Below are positions 7,073-8,847 of a stretch of DNA of 64,000 bases, in pieces (the first letter of the stretch is position 1; every line of letters begins with the position of its first letter). A program made the position numbers and the translations under genes. Location: NCBI RefSeq assembly GCF_003018255.1, contig NZ_CP027440.1; one strand, written 5' to 3'. The notes beneath the pieces are model-generated. The model made no database searches. It was not told where the DNA came from and saw only the letters and a program-made list of their open reading frames with translations. This DNA comes from Escherichia coli (GTDB taxonomy: Bacteria > Pseudomonadota > Gammaproteobacteria > Enterobacterales > Enterobacteriaceae).

Positions 7073-7345
7073 TTATTTGATATAAGAATCCAGCACCTTC
7101 AGAACGACATCCAGATCTTCTTCACGTTTTAGCTCATCCCCCTGGTGAACGATGTGTTCCGTCAGATGGCCTTTAATCACTTCCCGCATCAGACCGTTTA
7201 CCGCGCCACGGATAGCAGCAATCTGTTGTAAAACTGCAGCGCATTCATGCGGTTCGTCGAGCATTTTCTTGAGCGCCACGACCTGGCCCTGAATCTTACT
7301 GGCACGCGCTTTCAGTTTCTGTTTATCACGGATTGTATGAGACAT
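7073..7345 (-). CDS. rcnR: Ni/Co-responsive transcriptional repressor (CsoR/RcnR family)
   Basis: 90-aa ORF divergent from rcnA; the intergenic region carries RcnR operator motifs. Confidence 0.85.
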
Positions 7346-7393: not shown

Positions 7394-7428
7394 TACTGGG
7401 GGGTAGTATAAGGTACTGGGGGGGAGTA
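7394..7428. promoter_or_regulatory. Two RcnR operator sites (TACT-G6-N-AGTA)
   Basis: tactggggggtagta and tactgggggggagta are read directly in the rcnR-rcnA intergenic region. Confidence 0.8.
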
Positions 7429-7465: not shown

Positions 7466-8290
7466 ATGACCGAATTTACAACACTTCTTCAGCAAGGAAA
7501 CGCCTGGTTCTTCATCCCCAGCGCCATCTTACTTGGTGCGCTTCATGGCCTGGAACCGGGGCACTCAAAAACGATGATGGCGGCGTTTATCATCGCCATC
7601 AAAGGCACCATTAAACAGGCGGTGATGCTCGGACTGGCAGCAACTATTTCGCATACCGCAGTGGTCTGGTTAATTGCCTTTGGCGGGATGGTGATCAGCA
7701 AACGCTTTACTGCTCAATCAGCAGAACCGTGGCTCCAGTTGATTTCCGCAGTGATCATTATTAGCACCGCGTTCTGGATGTTCTGGCGTACCTGGCGCGG
7801 CGAACGCAACTGGCTGGAGAATATGCACGAGCATGATCATGAGCATCATCACCACGATCACGAAGATCACCACGACCATGGACATCATCACCATCACGAA
7901 CATGGCGAGTATCAGGATGCCCATGCACGAGCCCATGCCAATGACATTAAACGACGCTTTGATGGTAGAGAGGTCACCAACTGGCAAATTTTGCTATTTG
8001 GCTTAACCGGTGGCCTTATCCCCTGCCCGGCAGCAATTACCGTGCTGTTGATTTGCATTCAGTTGAAAGCCCTGACACTGGGCGCAACACTGGTCGTCAG
8101 TTTCAGCCTCGGCCTGGCGTTAACGCTTGTCACCGTAGGCGTTGGCGCAGCAATCAGCGTTCAGCAGGTCGCAAAACGCTGGAGCGGATTTAACACTCTC
8201 GCTAAACGCGCTCCCTATTTTTCCAGTCTGTTGATTGGCTTAGTTGGTGTGTATATGGGCGTACATGGCTTCATGGGCATAATGCGATAA
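7466..8290 (+). CDS. rcnA: Nickel/cobalt efflux permease
   Basis: 274-aa membrane protein with a His/Asp/Glu-rich loop (HEHDHEHHHHDHEDHHDHGHHHHHEHGE). Confidence 0.9.
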   Translation: MTEFTTLLQQGNAWFFIPSAILLGALHGLEPGHSKTMMAAFIIAIKGTIKQAVMLGLAATISHTAVVWLIAFGGMVISKRFTAQSAEPWLQLISAVIIISTAFWMFWRTWRGERNWLENMHEHDHEHHHHDHEDHHDHGHHHHHEHGEYQDAHARAHANDIKRRFDGREVTNWQILLFGLTGGLIPCPAAITVLLICIQLKALTLGATLVVSFSLGLALTLVTVGVGAAISVQQVAKRWSGFNTLAKRAPYFSSLLIGLVGVYMGVHGFMGIMR

Positions 8291-8508: not shown

Positions 8509-8847
8509 ATGACCATTAAAAATAAGATGTTGCTGGGTGCGCTTTTGCTGGTTACCAGTGCCGCCTGGGCCGCACCAGCCACCGCGGGTTCGACCAATAC
8601 CTCGGGAATTTCTAAGTATGAGTTAAGCAGTTTCATTGCTGACTTTAAGCATTTCAAACCAGGTGACACCGTCCCAGAGATGTACCGCACCGATGAGTAC
8701 AACATTAAGCAGTGGCAGTTACGTAACCTGCCCGCGCCTGATGCCGGGACGCACTGGACCTATATGGGTGGCGCGTACGTGTTGATCAGCGACACCGACG
8801 GTAAAATCATTAAAGCCTACGACGGTGAGATTTTTTATCATCGCTAA
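8509..8847 (+). CDS. rcnB: Periplasmic Ni/Co homeostasis protein
   Basis: Start set at the internal Met (MTIKNKMLLGALLLVTSAAWA signal peptide) within ORF 8329..8847, giving 112 aa; GGAGA-like RBS upstream. Confidence 0.75.
   Translation: MTIKNKMLLGALLLVTSAAWAAPATAGSTNTSGISKYELSSFIADFKHFKPGDTVPEMYRTDEYNIKQWQLRNLPAPDAGTHWTYMGGAYVLISDTDGKIIKAYDGEIFYHR

Follow-up and report, generated by a model that had tools for sequence, protein, structure and literature searches.

The histidine-rich linker of the Escherichia coli nickel/cobalt efflux protein RcnA varies in length between strains, very probably through slippage and misalignment at short direct repeats

The nickel/cobalt efflux protein RcnA (YohM) carries a histidine-rich loop that was first described in Escherichia coli K-12 by Rodrigue et al. 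(2005, J Bacteriol 187:2912), as that work is cited in PMC3391293 and PMC5183578. According to the same work as cited in PMC3391293, the K-12 protein is active in Ni(II)/Co(II) efflux. The loop is generally taken to bind metal (PMC6760104, PMC11247825), an inference that we share. The choice between RcnA as an exporter and RcnA as a chelator acting through its loop is left undecided in PMC11247825, which also quotes 17 histidines for the E. coli loop.

Length variation driven by repeats has been described at this position in other species. In Salmonella, the 6-bp CACGAC repeat STTR5 lies within the orthologous gene yohM (rcnA) (PMC5183578, PMC1781188), and is one of the five loci in the standard Typhimurium MLVA scheme, with a median of 10 copies in 12,112 isolates and a maximum of 26 (PMC5183578). 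Its single-unit slippage has been measured in vitro, during laboratory passage (PMC5183578), VNTRDB chose it as its example of a genuine variable-number tandem repeat, or VNTR (PMC1781188), and the Salmonella rcnA repeat is listed as VNTR-19 in a comparative genome paper (PMC3391293). After chicken passage, Salmonella was reported to have lost 54 nt, encoding (HD)9, at codon 123 (PMC6760104). Codon 123 is also the position of the E. coli tract described below, and the copy number of STTR5 varies between isolates. Its unit encodes the same His-Asp dipeptide as the (GACCAC)n arrays that we find in O157-type E. coli, one half-unit out of register. With a median of 10 and a maximum of 26 copies, the arrays in Salmonella exceed those of the O157 type (mode 6, range 4 to 15) in length, and the E. 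coli allele from which our analysis starts, in contrast, has no perfect array.

MLVA locus 27 of Klebsiella pneumoniae lies in rcnA and consists of a CATGGT repeat present in 0 to 19 copies (PMC3948817). It is likewise a hexanucleotide VNTR in the His-rich region of rcnA that is used for strain typing, a likeness established by description and not by alignment, but its unit encodes His-Gly rather than His-Asp or His-Glu and it belongs to another species. In E. coli O157:H7, the MLVA locus O157-19 (TR7) has a 6-bp unit with 6 copies in EDL933 (PMC3777172), clade medians of 6 to 7 (PMC10062581) and no null alleles (PMC3768571). The RcnA proteins of cable bacteria belong to the same family and have the same central loop, here enlarged to 100-123 aa with 33-53 histidines (PMC11247825), so that loop size is evolutionarily plastic. 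These long loops are fixed across the clade and represent variation between taxa, and repeat slippage is not invoked for them (PMC11247825).

The His-rich RcnA loop was thus on record by 2005, and the variation of its length through repeats is established knowledge that serves for typing Salmonella (STTR5) and Klebsiella. We add the picture for E. coli, in which about 14% of complete genomes, as estimated from a sample of 59, have a non-standard loop length, together with two independent hexamer arrays and an O157 series of 4 to 15 Asp-His pairs in otherwise identical genes. We found no paper describing the E. coli rcnA repeat as such in the searched literature, which did not include Rodrigue 2005 and Noller 2003.

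The analysis begins with a 64,000-nt stretch of E. coli contig NZ_CP027440.1, which we call the window. Three genes in it are relevant here, and their order is common to all of the E. coli loci that we fetched.

7466-8290, plus strand: rcnA coding sequence (274 aa and a stop codon) for a NicO-family protein of nickel/cobalt efflux (open reading frame list, Pfam, NCBIfam).
7073-7345, minus strand: rcnR, the divergent Ni/Co-responsive repressor (Pfam Trns_repr_metal, 3.5e-21; NCBIfam equivalog RcnR, 4e-59).
8509-8847, plus strand: rcnB, an accessory gene downstream of rcnA (Pfam RcnB, 7.3e-19; the annotation is rcnB in every E. coli locus that we fetched).

The identity of the transporter gene is well supported. 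Residues 13-273 match the Pfam profile PF03824 (NicO) at 3e-69 with 233.9 bits (cut-off 27.7), and residues 1-274 match NCBIfam NF007454/PRK10019 ('nickel/cobalt efflux transporter') at 5.8e-169 with 560.6 bits (cut-off 195); these full-length matches exceed the curated cut-offs and place the protein in the NicO/RcnA family. RefSeq E. coli genes annotated as rcnA are 100% identical in nucleotide sequence to the reading frame at 7466-8290. In an alignment of 33 RcnA sequences with identities down to 33%, residues H27, L29, E30, P31, G32, H33, K35, G179, G183, P186 and C187 are invariant, and both the N-terminal metal-site signature (the LHGLEPGHSK region) and the GGxxPC motif of the second half are present in the window protein. 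The latter is 98-99% identical to K-12 RcnA, whose loop differs by E122G, H125Y and D134H; gene, loop and genomic context are the same, and there is no difference in kind. Between rcnR and rcnA are two inverted-repeat sites with G-tracts, at 7394-7408 and 7414-7428 (TACTGGGGGGTAGTA and TACTGGGGGGGAGTA), which we take to be putative RcnR operators from their fit to the TACT-G6-N-AGTA consensus of Iwig and Chivers. Two minus-strand open reading frames crossing the histidine codons, at 7718-7987 (89 aa) and 7761-7928 (55 aa), were considered and rejected as genes; they are by-products of biased, low-complexity codons inside the strongly supported plus-strand rcnA.

The part of the gene that concerns us is a single tract in its middle.

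7826-7909, plus strand: His-rich tract, codons 121-148, HEHDHEHHHHDHEDHHDHGHHHHHEHGE, by translation; the sole part of rcnA that differs in length among E. coli strains in protein and DNA alignments.

The sequence-only reading had assigned 7826-7915 to the metal-binding, His-rich loop of RcnA. In the rcnA frame these positions translate to HEHDHEHHHHDHEDHHDHGHHHHHEHGEYQ, with the 28-residue peptide itself ending at 7909, and the assignment is borne out by the translation, by the Pfam and NCBIfam profiles and by an AlphaFold2 model. Histidine accounts for 17 of the 28 residues, which is 17 of the 23 histidines in the entire protein (binomial probability about 2e-21 at a 2.3% background). The codons are CAT (9), CAC (8), GAT (3), GAG (3), GAA (2), GAC (1), GGA (1) and GGC (1), and so the description of the tract as dominated by cat, cac, gat and gaa is essentially right by codon count, except that GAG outnumbers GAA.

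The AlphaFold2 model, built from the 33-sequence alignment, has a mean pLDDT of 79.6 and a pTM of 0.71. It places a helix at residues 83-120, coil with a pLDDT of about 50 at residues 121-148, and a helix at 149-165 that precedes the second membrane bundle. The model accordingly predicts that the tract is an unstructured linker joining the long third helix to the second half of RcnA. We took the membrane layout from the modeled secondary structure; a Kyte-Doolittle scan gave fragmented, overlapping windows. Arg and Lys are frequent in the flanks of the linker (R108, R111, R114, K162, R163, R164 and R168, read from the sequence), so the positive-inside rule suggests that it is probably cytoplasmic, and DeepTMHMM predicts the same side in PMC11247825. 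A search for a solved NicO-family structure returned none, giving only spurious matches to the His tract (a cobaltochelatase and a bacteriocin-type signal sequence-containing protein).

We now turn to the repeats within the window's own allele, which had been described as a short codon-repeat tract. Short imperfect repeats are indeed there, but a perfect array is not: the longest perfect hexamer run has 2 copies, and Tandem Repeats Finder detects only imperfect periods of 9, 12 and 18 nt with 74-90% match. Three repeat features stand out.

7832-7854, plus strand: CATGATCATGAGCATCATCACCA, the left copy of an imperfect direct repeat of 23 nt, found by repeat search; its last 11 nt, CATCATCACCA at 7844-7854, match the right copy perfectly.
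7871-7893, plus strand: CACGACCATGGACATCATCACCA, the right copy, which lies 39 nt further downstream and has its perfect 11-mer at 7883-7893.
7847-7903, plus strand: degenerate 18-nt periodicity with consensus CATCACCACGATCACGAA (HHHDHE), 3.2 copies at 74% match by Tandem Repeats Finder.

The two direct-repeat copies are 83% identical at a total spacing of 39 nt, and the degenerate 18-nt periodicity is probably a trace of older unit duplications. By definition, a VNTR is a head-to-tail array of at least three near-perfect copies of a short unit; the window allele contains no such array, whereas the (GACCAC)4-15 and (CACGAG)2-7 alleles described below do. The window tract is cryptically repetitive and is not a clean microsatellite.

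How widely does the tract vary? We searched 5,426 complete E. coli genomes by megablast with the window's rcnA, found the gene, annotated as rcnA, in 5,365 of them, and took rows at even rank steps to obtain a sample of 59 genes. The common form has 825 bp, as in the window (51 of the 59, or about 86%), and the other genes have 804, 822 (two genes), 840, 849, 852, 858 and 870 bp. With the further genes that we fetched, the overall range is 786 to 906 bp; every length is a multiple of three and every gene is annotated as an intact coding sequence. In the protein and DNA alignments of the fetched alleles, all gaps fall between codons 121 and 148, and the membrane parts of the aligned length alleles remain 97-99% identical. 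Measured from Met120 to Tyr149, the loop has 15 to 55 residues and 8 to 29 histidines across E. coli alleles, and 162 E. coli RcnA proteins contain 56 distinct loop sequences of 15-54 aa. This allele census draws partly on a protein homologue search, whose best 120 matches were E. coli clusters only.

The sequence-only reading had predicted that loop length varies between strains, and had named an alignment of rcnA alleles as the way to find out, with an invariant loop as the outcome that would speak against it. The alignment shows in-frame insertions and deletions inside the tract at the species level and, because loop length is not invariant, the prediction holds. The changes do not amount to phase variation, which requires repeat changes that shift the reading frame or the promoter spacing: the units here are 3, 6, 18, 36, 39 and 54 nt, and all gene lengths are multiples of three. 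For genome scans, differences in rcnA length between strains are to be expected, and give no reason to call an error or a pseudogene.

A few loci depart from this picture in other ways. There was no rcnA match in 61 of the 5,426 genomes. In strain ZF31 (NZ_CP047455.1), only the first 111 nt of rcnA are left, adjoining yehA, as a deletion would leave them. An IS1A transposase gene lies about 35 nt past the rcnA stop codon in strain 2018-05-2CC (locus L021, 939-982). Among all genomes, one rcnA match is located on a plasmid.

The clearest length series come from alleles with perfect hexamer arrays. An O157-type family, found in 325 genomes with a family-specific query, carries (GACCAC)n, which encodes Asp-His, and its tract is followed by an additional GDNE. 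Copy numbers of 4 (Sakai), 5, 6, 7 (SS17), 9, 10 and 15 were verified; for EDL933 (n = 6) and for the class with n = 8, the copy number was deduced from the length of the match, 133 and 145 nt respectively. Within a spread sample of rows carrying the canonical O157-type allele, the counts are 6 (n = 4), 3 (n = 5), 24 (n = 6), 12 (n = 7), 5 (n = 8), 2 (n = 9), 1 (n = 10) and 1 (n = 15). Seven O157-type alleles spanning n = 4 to 15 show no single-nucleotide differences in the remainder of rcnA; at the level of the locus, copy number thus differs between identical flanks, as in a VNTR. Such a series, identical outside its array, reads as the signature of recent stepwise slippage. The exact O157-type proteins of 283, 285 and 289 aa are absent from a collection of 15 billion proteins, where near-identical variants occur.

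A second family, with a short loop, was found in 153 genomes and carries (CACGAG)n, encoding His-Glu, with n = 1, 2, 3, 4, 5 or 7. The (CACGAG)2 and (CACGAG)4 alleles have no differences elsewhere in the gene, and the alleles with n = 3, 5 and 7 differ by 1-2 single nucleotides. In one genome, NZ_OZ546925.1 (isolate AF14), two places match the short-loop query, which may mean a second copy of rcnA; the copy fetched from it (L026) has the longest (CACGAG) array seen, n = 7.

The O157-type array invites comparison with the typing locus O157-19 (TR7), since both have a 6-bp unit, 6 copies in EDL933 (by match span for rcnA) and a center at 6-7 copies, although comparable copy numbers also occur at other loci, O157-37 among them. 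By unit size and copy number alone, the rcnA (GACCAC)n array is a candidate for O157-19/TR7, as a lead only. In the searched literature, which did not include Noller 2003, we found no genomic position, primers or motif for CVN014, CVN015, CVN007 or TR7/O157-19.

Outside the perfect arrays, loop length changes by larger or single steps. L002 and L003 contain one extra, diverged 18-nt unit, CATCATCAAGACCACGAA (HHQDHE), in a type represented by about 60 genomes. Rare alleles contain a 36-nt duplication (P0124) or a 54-nt duplication (P0104), and the 273-aa alleles have a single His-codon change within their CAT/CAC runs. Deletions can be traced to direct repeats. The 261-aa allele of NRG 857C (L028) is the window allele minus 39 nt, with no other difference in the gene, and its missing segment is one repeat copy ending in CATCATCACCA (7844-7854 or 7883-7893) together with the spacer. 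L010 has the same 39-nt deletion in another background with its crossover at CATGAACATC and, because background and crossover point both differ, this deletion arose independently of that in L028. L013 lacks 36 nt between ATCACGAACAT repeats.

As a small difference outside the loop, the 278- and 281-aa alleles (L002 and L003) end in ...GIM without the final Arg, and their annotated coding sequence falls 3 nt short of where the aligned region ends.

The window allele itself changes length rarely, by deletion between direct repeats of 8-23 nt, and is mostly stable. In a large protein collection, its exact protein is present on at least 1000 contigs, and its deletion derivatives P0012 and P0027 on 1 to 3 contigs. 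The earlier suggestion that the tract is slippage-prone fits the locus across the species and the alleles with perfect arrays, such as those of the O157 type, which differ only in the number of GACCAC units, but it overstates the instability of the window allele because the tract of the latter has no perfect array. By analogy with other O157 VNTRs (PMC3777172), long perfect arrays would be expected to mutate at about 1e-5 to 1e-4 per generation.

These observations lead us to the following reading, which we hold with high confidence: the flexible, His-rich linker of RcnA drifts in length by slippage and misalignment between short direct repeats, while the membrane core stays fixed. RcnA would export excess Ni(II) and Co(II), and its linker is written almost wholly in His, Asp and Glu codons (CAY, GAY and GAR). 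Because nearly all of its codons are of these three kinds, short direct repeats abound in the DNA of the tract. Whole codons would be gained or lost when these repeats slip or misalign during replication, and loop length would drift. Where a perfect hexamer array has formed, the locus acts as a true variable-number tandem repeat; the window allele, with the common 28-residue form and imperfect repeats only, undergoes rare deletions between its direct repeats. That slippage is the molecular mechanism in E. coli is inferred from the sequence patterns and from the Salmonella experiments.

Does the length of the loop matter to the cell? The sequence-only reading had suggested that it may tune metal specificity. 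In its adaptive form, the proposal states that loop length or histidine number is selected in each lineage for Ni/Co efflux capacity or for a preference between Ni and Co, with slippage as a fast 'tuning knob'. Changes in His-Asp or His-Glu number would alter Ni/Co buffering, the export rate or the Ni:Co preference, and niche selection would keep different lengths, for example in the bovine gut for O157 and in extraintestinal sites for the short-loop B2/F strains. We consider this chain of events unlikely. It agrees with the wide assumption that the loop binds metal, with the wide natural range (8 to 29 histidines in E. coli, and loops of 21 to 244 aa across the family), with the preserved reading frame of all variants, and with the pairing of a strongly expanded loop and heavy nickel use in cable bacteria (PMC11247825). 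Salmonella STTR5 alleles also cluster in the middle of their range, with extreme alleles mutating back towards it (PMC5183578). However, preservation of the frame is uninformative about selection, because repeat units of 3, 6 and 18 nt are multiples of three and produce in-frame changes automatically. The Salmonella mid-range bias is explicable by mutational bias (PMC5183578). The O157 copy numbers are unimodal around 6-7, a spread that neutral stepwise mutation would produce and that is equally compatible with stabilizing selection. In addition, alleles with only 8-10 histidines persist in many isolates. A link between repeat length and metal function has been raised in passing, as speculation (PMC5183578, PMC3391293, PMC6760104), and we found no paper in the searched literature that relates a Ni or Co phenotype to rcnA repeat number. 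A measurable adaptive effect of loop length is, in our judgment, doubtful, and our best estimate is that most of the variation is neutral or near-neutral drift in a disordered, functionally tolerant linker. The O157 allelic series offers a cheap test of whether metal resistance or selectivity depends on how many histidines the cytoplasmic loop of a transporter carries; if tuning were true, its alleles with n = 4-15 in otherwise identical genes would form a natural dose-response experiment.

Alternatively, the length classes could be old allelic lineages moved between strains by homologous recombination, with slippage playing a minor part. Some length classes do differ by many substitutions and look mosaic: the major classes are separated by 7-20 substitutions outside the loop and by 2-8% in overall identity, and L016, L020 and L022 join a window-type 5′ half to an O157-type 3′ half. 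Slippage is thus not the only process at work on the tract, to which recombination between old alleles also contributes. As the principal source of length variation, recombination is nevertheless improbable, because alleles within a class that differ only in copy number show 0-2 single-nucleotide differences elsewhere, a result that recombination between diverged alleles cannot yield. The rare deletions end exactly in direct repeats, and slippage at the orthologous Salmonella repeat has been seen in the laboratory (PMC5183578), as the slippage reading would have it.

The remaining explanation, that low-complexity repeats were collapsed or expanded during assembly, is extremely unlikely: short-read assemblies can miscount tandem repeats, and the 54-nt deletion in PMC6760104 comes from draft assemblies of 60 contigs, but our arrays of 24-90 nt are below sequencing-read length and were taken from RefSeq assemblies of complete genomes. 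Identical alleles also turn up repeatedly in independent genomes (for each of the 267-, 278- and 281-aa proteins, on at least 1000 contigs), the lengths always differ by an exact multiple of the repeat unit, and PCR with capillary electrophoresis sizing shows such variation in Salmonella and Klebsiella (PMC5183578, PMC3948817).

Slippage and misalignment at short direct repeats thus remain our account of the E. coli alleles. Across the wider family, a survey of 50%-identity representatives gave the loop range of 21 to 244 residues quoted above, and many of these loops consist of HD, HG, HS or HP repeats. A subset of the family (P0163, P0165, P0167, P0171, P0172, P0175, P0178, P0187 and P0206), with loops of 122-244 residues, contains a conserved insert that is not His-rich. 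Its motifs resemble DTGHG..ELS.FEDGVPP.FRL, IPEPH.F and then GH.H.Y, with His runs on both sides, and by its sequence the insert looks like a folded domain placed within the loop.
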